A stretch of 57,915 nt of DNA from an uncultured Caldilineaceae bacterium (lineage in GTDB: Bacteria > Chloroflexota > Anaerolineae > Caldilineales > Caldilineaceae). Positions 3,001-37,992 of this stretch are shown in pieces. The translations under genes and the position numbers were made by a program. Under the pieces are notes generated by a model. It was given only the letters and a program-made list of their open reading frames with translations, was not told where the DNA came from and did no database searches. The stretch lies in the NCBI GenBank assembly GCA_964568485.1, contig CAZMRA010000001.1:4701-62615 (forward strand), in the 5' to 3' direction. Numbering within the stretch: the first letter of the stretch is position 1; every line of letters begins with the position of its first letter.

Positions 3001-5084
3001 TGCACGGCCCAAACCAAGCGGATCTCGTGGGGTGAAGGCCAGCTGCCGCTGGGTAGATAGCGCATGCGTCCAGAGAAGGCAACGCGTTCCCCGGTCTGTT
3101 CGTTGGTGACCACGCTCAGCGGGACATAAACCACTTGATAACTGTTGTTGGCGGTCAGCGGGTTGGCGCTGATGTTGTAAGCAGTTAAGTCTGCTTGAGG
3201 TGGCAAGTTGGTGGTTGTGTCATTGATGCGCAACTCCAACATCGGGATCAGCTTCATGTCGCCGGTTTCTTCGTTGGCCCCGGCGCTGCGACCACTGGCG
3301 CTAGCTAGATCGGCATAGGTGTAGCCATCGGTATCTTGTACCTGACCGAGCTGGTCACGTGGCCAATCCAACACGCTTAAGGCAAACCAGAGATTTTTCG
3401 GATCGGTGGGGCGCAATTGAAAATCGACAAAGGTGGGCTGGTTGGCCGTCAGGTTGTTGATCGTCAATTGAAACGGGTTTGTATGGCTAAAACCTGATCC
3501 CGCACTTTTGGTAAAAGGCGAAAGATCAATTGAATCGGGCACGCCATCGCCATCGTTGTCTTCATCAAAGAGATCGGGCACGCCATCGCCATCGGTATCA
3601 TCAACCTGGCCATCACTATTGCCATCCCACTCGAGATCGTCGCTGATACCATCGTTGTTGCTATCTGCTTCGAGCGGATTGGTGTGCCACTGCTTGCCCC
3701 CGAACATAAAACCGGCCACTTCGACCGCATCAGAAATGCCATCTTCGTCGCTATCGGCAAACTCGGAGTCGGTGCCAATGCGCGCTTCCACAAAATCGCT
3801 CAACCCGTCATTATCGGTATCCACCCCAGAGTCGGTCAGTTGCAGATTGGGTGCTTGGGCGGCGGCAAGATTGGGGGACTGCAGATCGGCCAGCCCGATT
3901 CCGGCAGCTTGTAAGCTGGATTCGGCACTTTCTAGAGGATTGGCTTGCGGATTAAACTCGACTTGCCCAAGCCGATCGCTCAGCGCGTGCACTGAGTCGT
4001 AAACGGCCTCATCTTCTTCCCGACTGGCGGCTTTCGCCTGCTGAGTTGCCAAGAAGCTATCGATCTGCAAGGTAGTCAACACGGGGCTGATCACGAGGCT
4101 GAGAATGGTCGCCACAGCCAAGCTGGTTTGTACCAAACGACGCCGCCGCCAATAGAGGATGAGCGCGGCTAGCGCACACAGCATCATTCCACTGAGCACA
4201 AGGCCCACGGTTGGCAACCAGGGGGCTAGGTTCACATTACTCATGCTGAAGCCCGCAGACTGGTTCCCAGCGCCTGCCGTTTGGGCGCCGGTCTCCGCAT
4301 TCGTTACCCCAAAACGCGAAAAATCGACAACAATCTGGGCGTTGACAAATTCGCCGCGCTGTTCGGGGAACACCAGCTCGAGGATTTGGCGGATCGGCAG
4401 ACCATTCTTCCCAACCCACAACTCACCGGTGCCGGTCATGTCTCGATAGTACTCGGGTGTTTCCAGCCGAACGCCGGGCGGCAACTTCCCTTGGGCGCGC
4501 AAGGCGGCTTCCATCTGCTGGCGGACATAAGCGGCAAAGGTCGGCCCATCAATGGTGAAGCTGTAGCGTGTAAACGGAATTCCCCCGCGCACTTCCGGCG
4601 GATTTTCCGAAACCGTACGCACGGCGGCTAGGTAGGCCATAAAATCGCCCTGGGGAGCCAAGCCACCAATGATATCTTCGCTCAACTGCCATTCGCCGGC
4701 ACCGTTACGCGTGAAGGTTTGGCCCTCCTCGACCTTCACGGCGACGCCACTGTTCCCCTCCAAAACGCTGCCACTTTCAGACCAGATCTGCAACGCCAAC
4801 CGCTCGTTAACGAGATCAGTATAGCCTTCGAGGTGCAGACGGTCGCTCCGGCTTTGGCGACCAATATTGGTCACTTGTGCCACCGGCACTGTGATCTGGG
4901 TGACATCGCTGGTGAATTCGTATGAACCAGCCGCGCGGGCTTTCTCCCAAGCGGCGGTTACCGGATCTGGCGTAGCAACGGCCACGAGCTGGGGCCAGAG
5001 GCTTATTGTTCCCAGCGCCAGCAGCGCGGCCACAGCAATACATACCAAGGGCAGAAAATGGTGTTTTGGAGTTTGAAATTTCAT
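3..5084 (-). CDS. Very large polytopic membrane/surface protein with thrombospondin type-3-like Ca-binding repeats. More than 1690 aa lie in the window and the C-terminus is beyond the left edge.
   Basis: Not in the ORF track. Minus-strand ATG at 5084 is preceded by AAGGA (5090-5094). My translation, MKFQTPKHHFLPLVCIAVAALLALG..., stays open to nt 3 except for two compensating 1-nt frame offsets at about 3180 and 3000. DxDxDGxxD repeats (DTDNDGLSD, DSDEDGISD, DTDGDGVPD, DADGDGLRN, DSDGDGLTD, DADGDGITD) occur at about 3535-3821 and 243-656. Hydrophobic TM clusters lie at about 4080-4230 and 1290-1880. Confidence 0.75.
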   Translation of the reverse strand, partial: MKFQTPKHHFLPLVCIAVAALLALGTISLWPQLVAVATPDPVTAAWEKARAAGSYEFTSDVTQITVPVAQVTNIGRQSRSDRLHLEGYTDLVNERLALQIWSESGSVLEGNSGVAVKVEEGQTFTRNGAGEWQLSEDIIGGLAPQGDFMAYLAAVRTVSENPPEVRGGIPFTRYSFTIDGPTFAAYVRQQMEAALRAQGKLPPGVRLETPEYYRDMTGTGELWVGKNGLPIRQILELVFPEQRGEFVNAQIVVDFSRFGVTNAETGAQTAGAGNQSAGFSMSNVNLAPWLPTVGLVLSGMMLCALAALILYWRRRRLVQTSLAVATILSLVISPVLTTLQIDSFLATQQAKAASREEDEAVYDSVHALSDRLGQVEFNPQANPLESAESSLQAAGIGLADLQSPNLAAAQAPNLQLTDSGVDTDNDGLSDFVEARIGTDSEFADSDEDGISDAVEVAGFMFGGKQWHTNPLEADSNNDGISDDLEWDGNSDGQVDDTDGDGVPDLFDEDNDGDGVPDSIDLSPFTKSAGSGFSHTNPFQLTINNLTANQPTFVDFQLRPTDPKNLWFALSVLDWPRDQLGQVQDTDGYTYADLASASGRSAGANEETGDMKLIPMLELRINDTTTNLPPQADLTAYNISANPLTANNSYQVVYVPLSVVTNEQTGERVAFSGRMRYLPSGSWPSPHEIRLVWAVQVLNDLPCSAGTDGCGADGYIRNVPQVVQTYYDDWYLTGLSVSEQHGATTAIVYEDPTATLPDNSPFLREGSALAALAYGLDQTFTTGSDHDSNNQRDFPISELSRRFNRTSNGGVSEDERWAIPNILRVTSQSYPTFDQAAIFTAMTETVKVLNTEFNAAWAANNTLKPTLLFAYEQRARSVSLDSARSGDGHINATASGVTVDLNPSSGTQAAMTTMVGVKWTHYCKADANASWAACDAELYWNELAQRYAGAVSQPGDPADPDVEGGRLFLTQLYDLALSQGINRAVQLDNHLISARYSQQNDTSLANNVRIAATGSAALMTTLGNAAILARYVNKISVTQQLGITVRRLGGGASGRAILTVKNFKTNRLAATGITLAAAGAIAGLATASYYASEGNLGGKIALRAFIISLQTVFAVLDPLLSARSWVASLKAAGQTASVYSARPEVVGTSKYASVIGTVIVIGLVWGFFIYSMVSNKVSAFSPEFNKALAETIAATIYLIVLAILSATVIGLILVGLVAAIDAILTAVCELGVDDLRTVPGLGGACFTLGTTAIKAIAYFLYNYDLMINTNRNDLVAPGAPQTVLADPEKGFVEGNALSITMPITTHVVHKNPDPSNGIYINLYLYFFSKDNLRSSTVNYSLTQPGPQTLSASRDQMSGQWFNVKEDHKYAATPMYGGYANTTPTPVGGFNLTAGLNRTASFHLNIGYALPAYECWIIPFLFFVVPICHTRTMSGNMSSQIDTMRYDIFPATFAEFITLASKTRGLGLAWDQAFPGMADADGDGLRNAAFGGPDPNDDPTNRGWDTDGDGLSDAFELQRRAAGFAYSLVQCDSDGDGLTDRQEAFYMTDPALADTDNDGLLDGEEVWHRDHDLATCAPLNTWSGGWDVQINALTPFTVRVSSDPTQADADGDGITDLAEKQLAQSTTPSERLDNQNRPYHPNVYNTPPIAIYTATDRRFVAPGSSVNYTTTVVAHAPLVPSILDVTVPGHFGASPA

Positions 5085-7843: not shown

Positions 7844-9382
7844 ATGCCGCAGCCGTTGATTCAACTCAAAGGGCTTACCAAGCGTTTTCCTGGCGTGCTC
7901 GCCAACGAGCAAGTCGATCTCGACCTCTACGCGGGCGAGGTGCACAGCCTATTGGGCGAAAATGGCGCGGGAAAAAGTACACTGATGACCATGCTGGCTG
8001 GTTTATACCGGCCAGATGCTGGGGAGATCTGGGTACGAGGGCGCCGGGTGGATTTCCATTCGGCGCAAGATGCGATTCGCCAGGGCATTGACATGGTGCA
8101 CCAGCATTTTCAACTGGTGGCCAGTTTTACTGTCCTCGAAAATATCATCTTGGGCCAGCGCTCGCCTCGCGGCCCCCTCCTGCCCGATCGCCGCCAAGCG
8201 CGCGAGCGCATCTTGCAGCTGTCACGCCAGTACCGCCTTGATGTCAACCCCGATGCGTTGGTCTGGCAACTCTCAGTTGGTGAACAACAGCGCGTCGAGA
8301 TTCTCAAAGCGCTCTATCGCGGGGCCGAAGTCTTGATCCTCGATGAGCCAACTGCGGTACTCACCCCCCAGGAAGCGAATGATCTGCTCGAAATCATCCG
8401 CATGTTGACTGCCCAGGGCCGTGCGGTGATCTTTATCAGCCATAAGCTGCAAGAGGTTTTGGCGATCAGCGACCGGATTACGGTGCTGCGGGATGGCCGT
8501 GTGGTCGGCACCTTCCAGCCGGCGCAGAGTTCGGTCAGTCAAAGTGAAATTGTTCAATTGATGATCGGGCGTGAATTGGCCCCGCCCTTGGCTCGTCCCC
8601 CGCAACCTAGTGGTGAGCCGCGTTTGCGCGTTCATGATCTCTGGGTGCACGACGAGCGCGGCTTGCCCGCTGTGCGAGGCTTCGATTTGACCGTACATGG
8701 CGGCGAAATCGTCGGCGTGGCTGGCGTGGCTGGGAATGGGCAACGCGAGTTGGAAGAAGCCCTACGCGGCATCCGGTCGATTGCCCGTGGTCAAATCTTT
8801 ATCGGTGCAAACGAAGCAACCCACTGCCTACCCGCCGAACGCATTGCTCAGCGGGTCGCGCATATCCCTTCGGACCGCTATGCACATGGCTTGTTGGCCG
8901 ATATGAGTGTGGCCGAAAATCTGGTAATGGATCGATTGGCGGAGCCACCTTATACACAACGGGGCTTGTTGCGCTATCGGGCCATCTACGCGGCAGGTGA
9001 GCACTTGGTCCGCCAATTTGCCGTACGTACGCCTTCGATCTTGACCAACGCGGGCAAGCTGTCGGGTGGCAACGCTCAAAAGCTGGTGTTGGCGCGTGAA
9101 CTGGCCCGCAATCCACAAGTGTTGTTGGCGGCCCAACCGACTCGCGGCCTAGATATTAGCGCCATCGAAGCAGTACATCAACAACTACTGCAACAACGGG
9201 CGCAAGGCACGGCGATCTTGTTGATCTCCTCTGAACTTGACGAGATCTTTGCACTCAGCGACCGCGTGGCCGTATTGTACGAGGGGCAAATCATCGGCAT
9301 TACACCGGGAGATCCGGCCTATCAATCGGCAGTCGGTTTGATGATGGCTGGCGTGCCTGCGGAGAAAGCGCTCGGGCAATGA
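7844..9382 (+). CDS. ABC transporter ATP-binding protein with two fused ABC domains (sugar/nucleoside uptake type)
   Basis: Walker A GENGAGKST, signature LSVGEQQRV, Walker B LILDEP. The second domain has LSGGNAQK. Confidence 0.95.
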   Translation: MPQPLIQLKGLTKRFPGVLANEQVDLDLYAGEVHSLLGENGAGKSTLMTMLAGLYRPDAGEIWVRGRRVDFHSAQDAIRQGIDMVHQHFQLVASFTVLENIILGQRSPRGPLLPDRRQARERILQLSRQYRLDVNPDALVWQLSVGEQQRVEILKALYRGAEVLILDEPTAVLTPQEANDLLEIIRMLTAQGRAVIFISHKLQEVLAISDRITVLRDGRVVGTFQPAQSSVSQSEIVQLMIGRELAPPLARPPQPSGEPRLRVHDLWVHDERGLPAVRGFDLTVHGGEIVGVAGVAGNGQRELEEALRGIRSIARGQIFIGANEATHCLPAERIAQRVAHIPSDRYAHGLLADMSVAENLVMDRLAEPPYTQRGLLRYRAIYAAGEHLVRQFAVRTPSILTNAGKLSGGNAQKLVLARELARNPQVLLAAQPTRGLDISAIEAVHQQLLQQRAQGTAILLISSELDEIFALSDRVAVLYEGQIIGITPGDPAYQSAVGLMMAGVPAEKALGQ

Positions 9383-12792: not shown

Positions 12793-12909
12793 CTAGCAAC
12801 AAAAGGCCAAAATTGCAAGGTTCTTGCAAGGTAAGACCGCCAAAACTTGTGCTATAGTATCCATGGGTGATGTAGTAGGTTCAATTGTTTCTCCTTGTGG
12901 GTTGTGTGT

Positions 12910-12945
12910 ACAAAGCGGCTCGTCATATTCGGCGAGCCGCTTTGT
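12910..12945. terminator. Hairpin between convergent genes (bidirectional terminator candidate)
   Basis: ACAAAGCGGCTCG / CGAGCCGCTTTGT forms a 13-bp perfect stem. The U-run is weak. Confidence 0.55.
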
Positions 12946-12968
12946 ATTGGGTGGCCGACGCATAATGG

Positions 12969-14624
12969 TCAGCTGCTTTCTAGTTGCCGTTTACGGGATA
13001 ATTTTCCCGCTTCCAAGTTCCAGGTTTCTCCGGCGAAGCGCTGGATAAAATGCCGATCGTGCGAGATGGCGACGACTGGACCAGGGAAGCATGCCAAGGC
13101 ATTTTCGAACTCTTCCAACACATCTAAGCTGATGTGATTGGTCGGCTCGTCGAGCAAGAGTAGATTGGCCCGCTGTGCGATCAGGCGAGCAATCTGTAAT
13201 TTGCGTTTCTGGCCGACGCTCAGTGCGCCGATCGGTTTTTGCAAGTCCGGCCAGGTGAAGAGACCATATTGCAGCAACTCTGCTTTGATCGTCTCGGTAT
13301 CCCCGATGCGCCCTGCTCGGTAGGCTTCGAACAGCGTTTGCCCCCCGGTAATCTCGGCCTGTTCCTGATCCAGGTAGCCGATCACCACGCTGGCAGCAAT
13401 GAAGATTTCTCCCTCATCCGGCTGCTCCACGCCGGCTAGTAATTTGAGCAAGGTACTTTTGCCCGCACCATTTGGCCCGGTAATCACGATGCGGCTCGTT
13501 GGTCCGATGTCACAACTGACACCGTCCAAGATGAGACGTGAGCCATAGCTTTTACGCAGATTGCTGGCGTTCAACGGTATTTTGCTGACCAGCGCTTGCG
13601 GATCAAACTCTGGGTTGATGGTCAATTCGCTGGGCGGCTTGGGTATGGGATTGGCTTCGAGGCGCCGCAGCCGTTCTTCGTTGTTGCGAATTGTTCGTGA
13701 GATCGCGCTTTGTAGCTTTTCGCCCTTGAAGGTATAGGCAAATTTATCATTGTCGCGTGGCGCACGCTCAAAGGCATTTTGCCGACTCTTGGTCTGGATC
13801 AGCTTACGGAGCGTCCAGATCTCTTCTTGTTGTGCCCAATATTGTTCGACCCACTTGGCCCGTTCCTGCGCTTTGACTTGAGCATAAAATTCATAATTGC
13901 CTGTGTAGATCTTGGCTTCTTTGCTGTGTTCTTCAATTTCAACAATGCTACTCACCACTTGGTTCAGAAAGTGGCGGTCGTGCGAAACTACCAGTACGCC
14001 CCCGCGGAAGCGCTGTAAGTACTCTTCCAGCCACGTCAACGAGGTGATGTCCAGATGATTGGTCGGCTCGTCGAGCAACAAGAGATCAGGATTGCGCAAG
14101 AGTAAGGCGGCCAACCCGACTCGGGTCTTTTCGCCTCCGGAAAGCGTCGCCATCGGGCGTGTGCGCGGTAGATGATCAACCCCCAGACCAGCCAAAACTT
14201 CGGCTAGGCGGTGTTCCAGATCATACCCAACGCGGCGGTCGAACTCTTCACTGGCGACACTGTAGGCCGCCAGCAGCGCATCCAGATCTTGATCTGGTTG
14301 CGCCATGGCTAATTCTAGCTTACGCAGGCGTGTTTCAAGTTGGCGTAGCTCGCCCAAAGCGTGATCGATAAAGTCGGCAATACTCTGGCCATTTGCGTTT
14401 GCTAATACTTGCGGTAGATAACCGACATCGGCACCACTAGCAATCTGCCAAGTGCCACTGTCTGCGGCTACCTCGCCGGTGATAATTTTAAGCAGCGTGG
14501 ATTTGCCAACGCCATTGGCGCCGACCAAGCCAACTTTTTGCCCGGCAGCCACAGTGAAGCTAACGCCATTAAGCACCTGATTATCGCCATAGGCTTTTGA
14601 AAGTTGTTCTATTTTTACTAACAT
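12969..14624 (-). CDS. ABC-F family ATPase (possible ARE-type ribosome-protection protein)
   Basis: Two ABC domains ([29 protein letters not shown]; [28 protein letters not shown]) joined by a long charged linker. No TM segment. Start moved to the ATG at 14624, downstream of GGAGG (about 14631-14635). Confidence 0.9.
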   Translation of the reverse strand: MLVKIEQLSKAYGDNQVLNGVSFTVAAGQKVGLVGANGVGKSTLLKIITGEVAADSGTWQIASGADVGYLPQVLANANGQSIADFIDHALGELRQLETRLRKLELAMAQPDQDLDALLAAYSVASEEFDRRVGYDLEHRLAEVLAGLGVDHLPRTRPMATLSGGEKTRVGLAALLLRNPDLLLLDEPTNHLDITSLTWLEEYLQRFRGGVLVVSHDRHFLNQVVSSIVEIEEHSKEAKIYTGNYEFYAQVKAQERAKWVEQYWAQQEEIWTLRKLIQTKSRQNAFERAPRDNDKFAYTFKGEKLQSAISRTIRNNEERLRRLEANPIPKPPSELTINPEFDPQALVSKIPLNASNLRKSYGSRLILDGVSCDIGPTSRIVITGPNGAGKSTLLKLLAGVEQPDEGEIFIAASVVIGYLDQEQAEITGGQTLFEAYRAGRIGDTETIKAELLQYGLFTWPDLQKPIGALSVGQKRKLQIARLIAQRANLLLLDEPTNHISLDVLEEFENALACFPGPVVAISHDRHFIQRFAGETWNLEAGKLSRKRQLESS

Positions 14625-14640
14625 ACCGACCTCCTGCCCG

Positions 14641-14773
14641 AAAAAAATAACAGCCAGCGGGGTTGTCGCCCGTGGCTGTTGGCAAATTGGCAGATTGATC
14701 GATCCCATCGAATCACCAATCAAAAACAGCCACGGGACCGAAGACGGCCGTGGCTGTGCTGTGACTGTATCAT
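14641..14773 (-). promoter_or_regulatory. Transcription-attenuator-like leader with two terminator hairpins, an alternative antiterminator and a uORF
   Basis: On the sense strand, seg1 is ACAGCCACGG (14757-14748). Seg2 is CCCGUGGCUGUU (14736-14725), followed by U5. Seg3 is AACAGCCACGGG (14680-14669). Seg4 is CCCCGCUGGCUGUU (14662-14649), followed by AU7. Seg2 and seg3 are perfectly complementary over 12 nt. Confidence 0.55.
14720..14773 (-). CDS. Putative 17-aa leader peptide (MIQSQHSHGRLRSRGCF) within the ABC-F leader
   Basis: ATG at 14773, TGA ending at 14720. Codons 5-17 span seg1 and seg2 of the attenuator. No convincing SD. Confidence 0.3.
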   Translation of the reverse strand: MIQSQHSHGRLRSRGCF

Positions 14774-14874
14774 TCGTAGGTAGCACTGTGCTTAGCGGTC
14801 GACTCGCCCCTTGGATTCTATCCAAATCAACACAGTGTTGCTTACCATTGGTAACAGATTTCCTTTAGAAAAGT

Positions 14875-14897
14875 TTGTACAAAACAAATCTTGTACA
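14875..14897. promoter_or_regulatory. Direct repeat of TTGTACA (operator-like) in the ABC-F / sqdB divergent region
   Basis: TTGTACA at 14875-14881 and at 14891-14897. Each copy contains the palindrome TGTACA. Confidence 0.3.
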
Positions 14898-15186
14898 CCC
14901 TACTACGGTTTGGTGTGTGCTGTCAAAAATCAGTGGGCTCGATTGATGCTTATTTTATGCCATTGAGGGGCTGGATCGCTGGTTTATTACTCTGCTAATT
15001 TGCAAAAGTGGCAGGATATAGTAATCTTGAGGTACTGAATCAAGAGCATCTCGGAACAACGATTGGCCGGTTGGATCGGGCTGCAAATGTTTGAATCAGC
15101 ACAAAGTATAGATGCATAGTCTATCCCGAATATGAGTGCGATGACCTGAATTTAGCTGCTATGCTGGGCGCAGAATTTCAGGATAG

Positions 15187-16398
<1,212 letters not shown>

Positions 16399-36312: not shown

Positions 36313-37992
36313 ATGAGCACAAAAGTTATTTACTCAATGTCTGGTGTCGGCAAAACCTATCCGCCGAACCGACAAGTTTTACGTGATATCAGCCTTTCCT
36401 ATTTTTATGGTGCCAAAATTGGCGTTCTTGGGTTGAATGGCTCAGGCAAGAGCACGCTGTTGCGTATCATGGCGGGGGTTGAGAAAGACTACAATGGCGA
36501 GACCATGCTCACCCCCGGTTATACAATTGGCTACTTGGAACAAGAGCCACTCTTGGACAACACCAAAACCGTGCGCAGCGTAGTTGAGGAAGGGGTACAA
36601 GAAGTCGTCGACGCTCTGCGCGAATTTGACGAGATCAATCTTAAATTTGGCGAAGAGCTCACCCCCGAAGAGATGGATAAGCTGATCGAGCGCCAAGGTG
36701 AAGTGCAAGAGAAGCTCGACGCCCTGAATGCTTGGGATCTGGATAGTCGTCTCGAATTGGCCATGGATGCGTTGCGCTGTCCACCGGGTGATACTCCGAT
36801 CGCTGTCTTGTCGGGTGGTGAGCGCCGTCGTGTCGCGCTCTGCCGCCTCTTGCTCAAAGCCCCAGATATTTTGTTGCTGGATGAGCCTACCAACCACTTG
36901 GATGCTGAGTCGGTCGCCTGGTTGGAAAACCACTTGCAAGAATATCCTGGCACAGTGATCGCCGTCACCCATGATCGCTACTTTTTGGACAATGTCGCCG
37001 GGTGGATCTTGGAGCTGGATCGTGGTCATGGGATTCCCTGGCGGGGGAATTATTCCTCCTGGTTGGAACAAAAGCAGGCCCGCTTGGCACTTGAAGAAAA
37101 GAGTGAAGCAGCTCGCCAGAAGACTCTGCAGCGCGAATTGGAATGGTTGCGCATGGCCCCCAAGGCTCGCCAAGCCAAAAACAAAGCGCGTATCACCCGC
37201 TATAACGAGTTGGTGGCCCAAGAACGCGAACGAGCGAACGAAGACCGCGAAATTTTTATCGCGCCCGGGCCCCGCCTTGGGGATGTGGTGATCCAAGCTG
37301 AAGGACTCAGCAAGACGTATGGCGATAACGTACTCTACGAAAATCTGAGTTTTGTCGTTCCCCCTGGCGCCATTGTTGGGATCATCGGGCCAAACGGGGC
37401 GGGGAAAAGTACCCTCTTCCGCATGATCGTCGGCCAGGAGCAGCCTGATCAGGGGGCAATCACGCTGGGTAGCACTGTAAAACTCGCTTATGTCGATCAA
37501 AGTCGCGAATCGCTGGATGGTAACAAGACGGTCTGGGAAGAGATTTCCGATGGGAATGAACAGTTGCAGATCGGCGAACGCTTGATCAACTCACGAGCGT
37601 ATGTGGCACGTTTTAATTTTTCTGGGACCGATCAACAGAAGAAGATCGGCGCGCTCTCTGGTGGAGAACGCAATCGTGTACACCTGGCGAAAATGCTAAA
37701 GTCGGGCGCAAATGTGATTCTGCTGGACGAGCCGAGCAACGATCTGGATGTAAACACCCTGCGTGCCCTCGAAGATGCGCTCGAATCGTTTGCTGGTTCG
37801 GCTTTGATCATCTCACACGATCGCTGGTTTTTGGATCGTATTGCGACACACATTCTCGCCTTCGAAGGTGACAGCCAGGTCTATTGGTTCCCCGGCAACT
37901 ATACCGAATACGAAGAAGATCGGCGCCGGCGTCTCGGACCCGCCGCGGATCGCCCCCATCGGATCACCTATCGCAAATTGCGCCGTGCCTGA
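36313..37992 (+). CDS. ettA: Energy-dependent translational throttle protein EttA (ABC-F)
   Basis: Near-collinear with E. coli EttA as I recall it: [107 protein letters not shown]. Confidence 0.95.

Follow-up and report, generated by a model that had tools for sequence, protein, structure and literature searches.

The messenger RNA leader of an ABC-F ATPase gene from an uncultured Caldilineaceae bacterium (phylum Chloroflexota) is probably a ribosome-mediated transcription attenuator with a two-step relay, controlling a gene that resembles antibiotic-resistance ABC-F (ARE) genes. The leader lies on the minus strand of the window, by which we mean the whole stretch of 57,915 nucleotides analyzed here (contig CAZMRA010000001.1, positions 4,701 to 62,615; all positions below are those of the window). 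A sequence-only reading had proposed for positions 14641-14773 a ribosome-dependent terminator/antiterminator leader of four segments, sensed by a ribosome on an upstream open reading frame (uORF) at 14773..14720. Comparative evidence supports the ribosome-dependent terminator/antiterminator leader but not the uORF named or the mechanism as written; the observation was largely right, and its interpretation was right in kind, wrong on the sensor, and incomplete on the architecture. The interval 14641-14773 is the 3′ half of a leader of ~265 nt, and the functional unit is larger, extending from ~14926 (promoter) to 14622. Its conserved design consists of six segments, namely the ribosome-binding region of a different uORF, an element that we call E, both arms of a first terminator (T1), and both arms of a second (T2):

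14792..14865, minus strand: conserved uORF with its Shine–Dalgarno (SD) sequence (AAGGA 14865..14861, ATG 14848, TAA 14794..14792; 18 codons, MVSNTVLIWIESKGRVDR)
14799..14814, minus strand: element E (CCAAGGGGCGAGUCGA) in the last uORF codons, candidate 5′ strand of antiterminator 1
14784..14837, minus strand: predicted anti-antiterminator of the window, CACUGUGUU (14837..14829) with AGCACAGUG (14792..14784), closing the uORF into a stem-loop
14716..14757, minus strand: predicted terminator T1 (hairpin 14757..14726, U5 14726..14722, GAUUGG 14721..14716)
14669..14736, minus strand: candidate antiterminator 2 (the relay), CCCGUGGCUGUU (14736..14725) with AACAGCCACGGG (14680..14669), 12 perfect bp
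14641..14680, minus strand: predicted terminator T2 (hairpin 14680..14649 with one bulged C, A-U7 14648..14641)

We propose that these parts act in the order in which they are transcribed, which is the SD-led uORF, E, a small hairpin, T1, T2 with the same stem, and finally the ribosome-binding site of the ABC-F gene. When no ribosome occupies the uORF start, the start region would pair with E or the stop region and form an anti-antiterminator; when a ribosome runs to the stop codon, E would be covered. In both cases T1 would form and RNA polymerase would stop, any read-through would meet T2, and in the window the spacer between T1 and T2 would also mask the SD of the ABC-F gene. The ON state would begin with the arrest of a ribosome on the uORF start codon or immediately 3′ of it; the ribosome would cover the 5′ strand of the anti-antiterminator and leave E free, the inducers being, by likeness to known ARE leaders, lincosamide, streptogramin-A, pleuromutilin, and similar drugs. 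Free E would then form antiterminator 1 with the inner 5′ strand of T1, and the 3′ arm of T1, left single-stranded, would capture the 5′ arm of T2 (antiterminator 2); one sensing event would disable both terminators. Termination, ribosome stalling as the signal, and the identity of the triggering drugs are steps that we infer from the letters. Like known ARE attenuators, the leader has a short SD-led uORF that is predicted to be translated, premature terminators between uORF and gene, and, computationally, an antiterminator that is exclusive with the terminator and depends on ribosome position, although this last feature is weak in the genus of the window.

Tandem terminators and the upstream reading frame

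Both hairpins have the form of intrinsic terminators, with GC-rich stems of 10–12 bp followed by U5 or U7, and are predicted to act as such. The T1 stem (ACAGCCACGG/CCGUGGCUGU, 10 bp, whose 5′ and 3′ arms are segments 1 and 2) carries a CCG-UCUU-CGG extension and has an RNAfold energy of –22.1 kcal/mol. The T2 stem (AACAGCCA-CGGG / CCCG-C-UGGCUGUU) folds at –18.8 kcal/mol, and its U-run ends 6 nt 5′ of GGAGG (14634..14630) and 16 nt 5′ of ATG 14624. Letters and fold alike bear out what had been described as hairpin 1 (10 perfect bp plus extension, then U5) and hairpin 2 (followed by AU7, before the GGAGG-ATG of the ABC-F gene). The arrangement is also conserved at orthologous loci: tandem terminators with the core GGYCACRG/CYGUGRCC and a U-run precede the ABC-F orthologue in 25 leaders from at least nine Caldilineaceae GTDB genera. 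Across 21 sequences, 96.7% of T1 cells are paired and four pairs show double changes, and T2 is kept in same-genus relatives. As a whole, a 186-nt stretch of the leader folds at z = –5.45, a value matched by 0/200 dinucleotide shuffles.

Some details of the terminators vary or recur among leaders. GAUUGG (or UAUUGG) often follows the U-runs, as at T1 of the window and in L004, L025, L014, C28, and C95. In the minimum free energy (MFE) fold of the window leader, UGAUUG (14722..14717, overlapping the last U) pairs with CAGUCA (14767..14762) and extends the T1 hairpin across the U-run. In L245, a leader from the closest other genus, the U-run of T2 is apparently lost. The MFE fold of the full leader also contains a further helix around T2:

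14625..14703, minus strand: predicted SD-sequestering helix around T2

It would pair AUCGAUC (14703..14697) with GGUCGGU (14631..14625) and UCUGCC (14694..14689) with GGCAGG (14638..14633), thereby covering the ABC-F SD GGAGG at 14634..14630. The corresponding helix of the same-genus leader L024 is longer (CCUGCCAG/CUGGCAGG). Because T2 is often distant from the gene, the helix is not a family-wide feature.

The uORF at 14848..14792 is conserved. Same-genus relatives retain its start and stop codons and its frame (MAGTTVLIQIESKERVDR), and it is still recognizable where ABC-F identity has fallen to 73% (MSSNTVLIRYRSQGRVRRLAQW and MIDTTILILRSRGRVYDPA, with the opening residues MSSNTVLIRYRSQGRVRR... 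and MIDTTILILRSRGRV...). An SD-led uORF of 12–25 codons ending 8–75 nt before T1 is present in 24/25 leaders, compared with 4.0±1.8 in dinucleotide shuffles and 4 on the reverse complement, and by this comparison its conservation is far beyond chance. In these 24 leaders the distance from the uORF end to T1 is 23–55 nt.

The sequence-only reading had placed the sensing ribosome elsewhere, on an ORF that would run through segments 1 and 2:

14720..14773, minus strand: 17-codon ORF MIQSQHSHGRLRSRGCF, present in the letters only

This ORF does end in the first U-run, and the 1:2, 2:3, and 3:4 complementarities on which a four-segment attenuator would draw are real. However, the ORF has no SD (its 5′ sequence is CAGUGCUACCUACGA), ACG replaces its ATG in each of the four other sequences of the genus (L024, L241, L242, and L243), and its stop would be shifted or lost with the U-run length, which differs within the genus. 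No ORF running through hairpin 1 occurs in any other leader. Because the ORF is specific to the window and lacks an SD, a ribosome on segments 1 and 2 is not the sensor. The ORF is most likely untranslated and outside the mechanism, and we consider a four-segment attenuator sensed through it, which would leave the conserved uORF and E unexplained, very improbable.

The peptides of the conserved uORFs do not point to other known modes of sensing. No conserved single-residue run of the kind used by trp/his/leu-type attenuators is found among 24 uORF peptides, and the downstream genes are not biosynthetic, which argues against an amino-acid attenuator. We also rejected peptide conservation as proof of an arrest peptide: the conserved xNT[GD] N-terminal codons and E also take part in helices of the RNA, and E falls in all three frames. 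In one subset of uORFs (L040, L025, and L247-L250) E is read as R-S-A-P-[VI] or G-A-P-I, and the window uORF, whose 3′ end is 14814..14792, closes with RVDR and that of L247 with PVDR. Such Arg/Ala/Pro-rich C-termini recall arrest peptides of the RAPP/RAGP type. They may be a by-product of the constraint on RNA, since E is read in other frames elsewhere.

Alternative pairings and ribosome position

Element E, commonly GGAGUGCGCCU, lies ~35–50 nt 5′ of T1 across leaders, and its partner E′ is the inner 5′ strand (and loop) of T1, ~14751..14738 in the window. Relative to the uORF, E occurs in all three reading frames and always within the last codons; it is conserved even so, and the constraint is therefore on RNA. 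Duplexes of E with E′ from the same genome average –16.8 kcal/mol, compared with –13.5 kcal/mol for pairs drawn from different genomes, and 0/20,000 permutations were as good (P < 5e-5, alignment-free test). The partners change together between genera, as in GAGUGCGCC/GGUGCACUC and GAGCGCGCC/GGUGUGCUU, and likewise in GAGUUUGUCCG/CGGACAAGCUC, CGAGUACGCCG/CGGACGUACUCG, and GGGAACUGCCUG/CAGGCAUUCCC. On a raw MAFFT alignment, compensatory changes occur in 7/11 E:E′ pairs, and the paired share of cells is 75.8%, versus 70.2±1.6% in shuffles and 33–60% in slid controls; register shifts blur this fixed-column count, and the alignment-free test is the better measure. E′ sits between the two T1 arms and is joined to the 3′ arm by hardly any linker, and by this geometry E:E′ and complete T1 should be mutually exclusive. 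T1 is thus most likely a regulated terminator, with its antiterminator E:E′ located 5′ of the interval first described.

The second pairing is the helix that would close the anti-antiterminator. In the window it comprises 9 bp between uORF codons 4–7 and the stop region, it is present in the MFE folds of both the whole leader and the ribosome-free nascent RNA, and five same-genus sequences show no change in either strand. Leaders of other genera have a counterpart that pairs the SD/start region of the uORF with E or the stop region, and in many leaders this helix reaches –20 to –33 kcal/mol. Its strands covary, with a mean of –19.3 kcal/mol for own partners versus –17.3 kcal/mol between genomes (P = 0.004).

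We then folded the nascent RNA up to the T1 loop for 24 leaders with the footprint of a ribosome masked. With the uORF start masked, the 5′ half of T1 pairs with upstream RNA over a mean of 12.1 bp (at least 7 bp in 23/24 leaders). Without a ribosome this pairing averages 8.0 bp (at least 7 bp in 14/24), and with a ribosome at the stop codon 7.5 bp (at least 7 bp in 17/24). In the window, E:E′ belongs to the nascent-RNA MFE fold only under the uORF-start mask.

These folds also bear on a simpler possibility, a translation-coupled attenuator that has no anti-antiterminator and forms E:E′ whenever the uORF is not translated through. Such a leader would sense general translation capacity, responding to few ribosomes, a block of initiation, or stalling anywhere 5′ of E. 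The ribosome-free prediction of antiterminator 1 in 14 leaders fits this model, as does the fact that the closing helix gives the weakest of the three covariation tests, with a small effect. Nonetheless, the length of the closing helix in many leaders and the joint change of its partners are not expected under this model, the ribosome-free nascent fold of the window leaves the T1 arm unpaired, and the precedent of Bacillus subtilis vmlR includes an anti-antiterminator. We therefore consider the simpler attenuator unlikely. Within the two-step relay, the anti-antiterminator is the least secure step, because antiterminator 1 is predicted without a ribosome in those 14 leaders.

The third pairing links the two terminators. 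As the sequence-only reading had noted, the 3′ arm of hairpin 1 is perfectly complementary to the 5′ arm of hairpin 2 over 12 nt. In the window this 2:3 duplex (–25.2 kcal/mol) is stronger than the duplex of T1 (–22.7 kcal/mol) or of T2 (–20.4 kcal/mol). It is strong in all leaders (–14 to –25 kcal/mol), and among 22 leaders the mean is –20.3 kcal/mol with own partners versus –18.9 kcal/mol with partners from other genomes (permutation P = 0.005). From the proposed 1:2/2:3/3:4 scheme, then, the complementarities stand, as does 2:3 in the role of antiterminator of T2, whereas four segments fall short of the full design.

Covariation of this kind also speaks against a reading without any switching, in which the hairpins would be a tandem pair of unregulated terminators or insulators, or would have arisen by chance. 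For such a reading one can cite that the OFF fold is the minimum by 15.5 kcal/mol and that control of read-through is not seen in RNA data. But there is nothing to terminate upstream on this strand: the claim that no gene lies there holds, the neighbor being the divergent sqdB. A constitutive double terminator would moreover silence a conserved, SD-led gene, and the conservation of the uORF, E:E′, and 2:3 argues for alternative folds. We regard the absence of switching as scarcely credible.

The downstream gene and homologous leaders

The gene behind the leader encodes a member of the ABC-F family:

12969..14624, minus strand: regulated gene, 551-aa ABC-F ATPase, ribosomal-protection-like by NCBIfam hidden Markov model (HMM)

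The protein consists of two ABC_tran domains and ABC_tran_Xtn. It scores 435 bits against NF000355 (ribosomal protection-like), above the cut-off of 380, and only 357 bits against the EttA model. Its best NCBIfam model is NF000171, the TlrC/CarA/OleB/SrmB "producer" family, at 482 bits for a cut-off of 800. Models of other ARE subfamilies (Vga, Lsa, Msr, Sal, OptrA, and CplR) give 150–270 bits for cut-offs of 680–1450. Classification by HMM thus supports the ribosomal-protection type but assigns no named ARE subfamily. Comparison with solved structures was uninformative for this purpose, EttA, YheS, VmlR, and PoxtA scoring about equally. Orthologues at 53–91% identity are restricted to Caldilineaceae and carry the NCBI label "ABC-F type ribosomal protection protein [Caldilineaceae]"; beyond that family, the most similar proteins come from Streptomyces and Nocardia, at 38–40% identity. 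A separate housekeeping ettA (36313..37992) is present as had been claimed (970 bits for a cut-off of 807), and the genome carries at least one further ABC-F gene besides. Comparative evidence backs the view that this paralogue is specialized, and its sequence suggests that it protects ribosomes.

The ABC-F frame is open for a further 67 codons 5′ of the ATG, from TTG 14825 (14624..14825), and ORF finders accordingly list a 618-aa product. We rejected this longer protein: ATG 14624, which has the GGAGG SD, is where the orthologue alignments begin, and translation of the leader shows no conserved protein sequence. In L245 and L246, which represent the closest other genus (73% ABC-F identity), a GNAT gene (Acetyltransf_1; L245:2068-3024 and L246:2508-3458) lies 3′ of the ABC-F gene on the same strand and is possibly co-transcribed with it under the same leader.

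Homologous leaders also precede other genes. In the same genome, each copy comprises a promoter and an SD-led uORF, then an E-like element that CGGUAA often follows, and then terminators of the same core:

L105:2380-2640 (= G000 contig C28:28879-29139), plus strand: leader copy with two terminators, before a RIO1-domain kinase gene (Pfam 2.3e-34)
L106:1990-2185 (G000 C95): leader copy with a single hairpin, before an ABC-2-type exporter ATPase gene and two permease genes
G000 C79:2700-3260: leader copy before an MFS-like gene
G000 C109:4750-5250: leader copy before a solute-binding protein gene
G000 C122, reverse-complement offsets 4748-4780, plus-strand 9154-9241, minus strand: leader copy before an MsbA-like ABC exporter gene

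The C28 leader combines the SD-led uORF MAVQVKSFAQFDHPSMRLLLNR and the element GAUGCGCCUAC...AAUCGGUAA with two GCCRCGG hairpins, U-runs, and GAUUGG/UAUUGG, and RIO-kinase copies are found in two other genomes (L236 and L238). The C122 leader has three tandem terminators whose related stem core is imperfectly conserved. A covariance model running from E to T1 finds copies in 48/81 Caldilineaceae genomes and 18/26 genera, with up to seven per genome, and in two other families of the same class; these copy numbers are lower bounds because the model missed C28 and C79, which had been found by pattern. Litorilinea-type genera carry the leader, whereas the genomes sampled from genus g21, several of them single-contig, gave no hit. 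Among 20 copies inspected that do not precede ABC-F genes, ~12 stand before ABC_membrane+ABC_tran exporters (MsbA/BmrCD-like), two before RIO kinases, one before an ABC-2 ATPase, and one before an S-adenosylmethionine (SAM) methyltransferase. In another family of the class (L247-L250, loci ~1370-1660), the leader precedes a gene that, judged by eye, is RimJ/RimL-like (GNAT); this leader has the SD GAAAGGAG, a uORF of 27–32 codons ending in ...RSAPV(R/D)R before the stop, the element CGUAGUGCGCCUG, and the terminator stem CAGCCGCGG or GACCACGG.

One possibility, to which we give slightly less than an even chance, is that these leaders form a single homologous family of relay-attenuator RNAs constituting a translation-stress regulon free of transcription factors, in which a single ribosome arrest would set off strand exchanges that follow one another like dominoes (E:E′, 2:3, 4:5). 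Its range would be Caldilineaceae plus two or more further families of the class, and each target would have its own uORF sensor. The targets would be ABC-F genes, BmrCD-like and ABC-2 exporters, an MFS pump, RIO kinase, SAM methyltransferase, and RimJ/L-like acetyltransferases. This set resembles antibiotic-induced regulons, and it is on that basis that the signal can be argued to be translation stress. If such a regulon exists, chaining two or three terminators of the same stem would provide a very tight OFF state and a full ON state.

The recurrence of one stem sequence suggests another kind of regulation, antitermination that depends on a factor or ligand. On this view a single RNA-binding protein would recognize the conserved GGCCACGG/CCGUGGCC hairpins, of which a leader carries two or three copies and a genome several leaders, or the hairpins would belong to a riboswitch; either would control the whole gene set, and the uORF would be no sensor. 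This reading draws strength from the near-invariance of the stem across genera and paralogous leaders, from the conserved GAUUGG that often follows the U-run, and from the single-hairpin leader before the ABC-2 exporter, where a 2:3 constraint cannot explain conservation. On the other hand, the T2 loops are variable, E covaries with the apical part of T1, the uORF is kept far more often than chance would predict, and mutual complementarity among four segments would by itself slow sequence change. Nor does the hairpin match a known RNA family: with Rfam 15 covariance models, positions 14000..15400 give nothing above noise at E ≤ 10, and six related leaders give only sub-threshold miRNA-hairpin noise. 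It was also rejected as a genome-wide or REP-like repeat: the 4.7 Mb contain 2 exact matches, and a one-mismatch search gives 49 sites per strand, versus 30 for a control pattern. Weighing both sides, we find dependence on a factor or ligand decidedly unlikely, and retain the ribosome-mediated relay as the preferred explanation.

The leader lies in the 586-bp spacer between ATG 14624 and sqdB (15211..16398, plus strand), and its 5′ end would be set by a promoter that we read from the sequence:

14897..14926, minus strand: putative sigma-70-type promoter (–35 TTGACA 14926..14921, 18-nt spacer, –10 TAGGGT 14902..14897)

The predicted transcription start near 14890 would give the leader its length of ~265 nt. 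Both hexamers are kept in four same-genus leaders (TTGACA and TAAGGT), with a variable spacer. A consensus promoter scan made no call at 14897..14926 because the spacer is 18 nt long. Immediately 3′ of the –10 box, where the leader is predicted to begin, a 9-bp hairpin (UGUACAAGA-UUUG-UUUUGUACA, 14875..14897) contains two copies of TGTACA; its conservation within the genus is partial. Sequences nearly identical to 12800..15300 occur in many metagenomes from manure, compost, and sludge. A few manure metatranscriptome contigs of low depth cover the ABC-F coding region, which is probably expressed in habitats of this kind, and one contig of 151 nt spans 14808..14658, from the uORF end through T1 into T2.

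Several observations weigh against a ribosome-mediated relay in the window. The E:E′ duplex of its genus is weak (–12.3 kcal/mol, rank 7 of 25; L024 has rank 12 of 25), its closing helix is unlike that of other genera, and MFEs separate the states poorly, with antiterminator 1 already predicted in 14/24 ribosome-free leaders. With 2:3 enforced on the full leader, the ON fold reaches –87.4 kcal/mol compared with –102.9 kcal/mol for OFF, which is the thermodynamic minimum; ON must therefore be a co-transcriptional kinetic state. The strong conservation of the terminator stem could reflect a trans-acting factor, and the ABC-F protein passes the generic ribosomal-protection HMM alone, reaching no named ARE family. 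The 151-nt contig is single and of low depth, so that DNA carry-over is possible, and the sequencing runs for a related complete genome are flat in depth and look like DNA. Termination at T1 and T2 and its relief by an inducer are predictions from sequence.

Relation to known attenuators

Several Gram-positive bacteria sense ribosome-targeting antibiotics by attenuating ABC-F and exporter genes, and the cases that we found in the literature are all in Firmicutes and Actinobacteria. With the window leader, ribosome-mediated attenuation would extend to Chloroflexota, a phylum abundant in manure, compost, and activated sludge, all of them rich in veterinary antibiotics. The two-terminator leader family is absent from Rfam 15 and from the full-text literature searched. 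As a conserved RNA family it could guide searches for inducible resistance-type genes among uncultured Anaerolineae. A natural terminator relay may also be of interest to synthetic biology, since it would tighten the OFF state. Among the genes that would be co-regulated are a bacterial RIO kinase and RimJ/L-like acetyltransferases, for which the leaders would supply a link to translation stress.

Elements of this design have counterparts in Bacillus. In B. subtilis, the heterodimeric ABC exporter bmrCD is induced by ribosome-targeting drugs through the bmrB leader peptide and a terminator, and BmrCD-type exporters are the commonest non-ABC-F genes behind the Caldilineaceae leader family. The ermK leader of Bacillus licheniformis has two terminators. 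To our knowledge, there is no evidence in the bmrCD or ermK leaders of terminators of the same sequence acting in relay, or of one leader family serving several gene classes.

A close parallel in layout is B. subtilis vmlR. Its uORF sits within an anti-antiterminator hairpin; a pause hairpin, a terminator, and an SD-sequestering hairpin come next, and induction follows from ribosome arrest at the start of the uORF (PMC9226507). The window leader would work by the same logic and shares with it the SD-led uORF within a predicted anti-antiterminator, a further hairpin, a terminator, an SD-sequestering helix, and an ABC-F gene. However, the vmlR uORF has 3 codons (MIN), compared with 12–25 in the Caldilineaceae leaders, and there is one terminator rather than two (three in some paralogous leaders) that share a stem and are coupled through 2:3. 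The sequences are dissimilar and the phyla differ, and the Caldilineaceae leader is multi-copy.

The sequence-only reading had assigned attenuators of this kind to Firmicutes, which was apt as to kind but too narrow in scope, since Streptomyces has them as well (PMC12421871, PMC8546547). In the ARE5 leaders of are5sc, tiaA, and lmrC, a uORF is combined with a premature terminator and the ribosome-binding site of the uORF lies in an alternative hairpin (PMC12421871, PMC8546547); are5sc and tiaA are induced by start-codon stalling with LSAP drugs (PMC12421871). This group is also the closest to the ABC-F protein of the window (best model "producer", 38–40% identity), although the protein stays below the "producer" cut-off (482 vs. 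800 bits) and no homology between the leaders was detected. The Streptomyces uORFs have 3–9 codons and single terminators, whereas the window leader has a uORF of 18 codons and two terminators.

At the level of the regulon, there is a likeness to the whiB7/wblC leader of Actinobacteria (cited in PMC12421871), a translation-stress sensor made of a uORF and a terminator, with a regulon of ABC-F genes, exporters, acetyltransferases, and methyltransferases. That leader acts through one transcription factor that activates the regulon; in Caldilineaceae, by contrast, each gene appears to carry its own RNA sensor, and the leader family implies no WhiB-like factor. The principle of ribosome-mediated attenuation is thus known, and what would be new is a multi-copy, two-terminator relay in Chloroflexota that also stands before drug-exporter genes.

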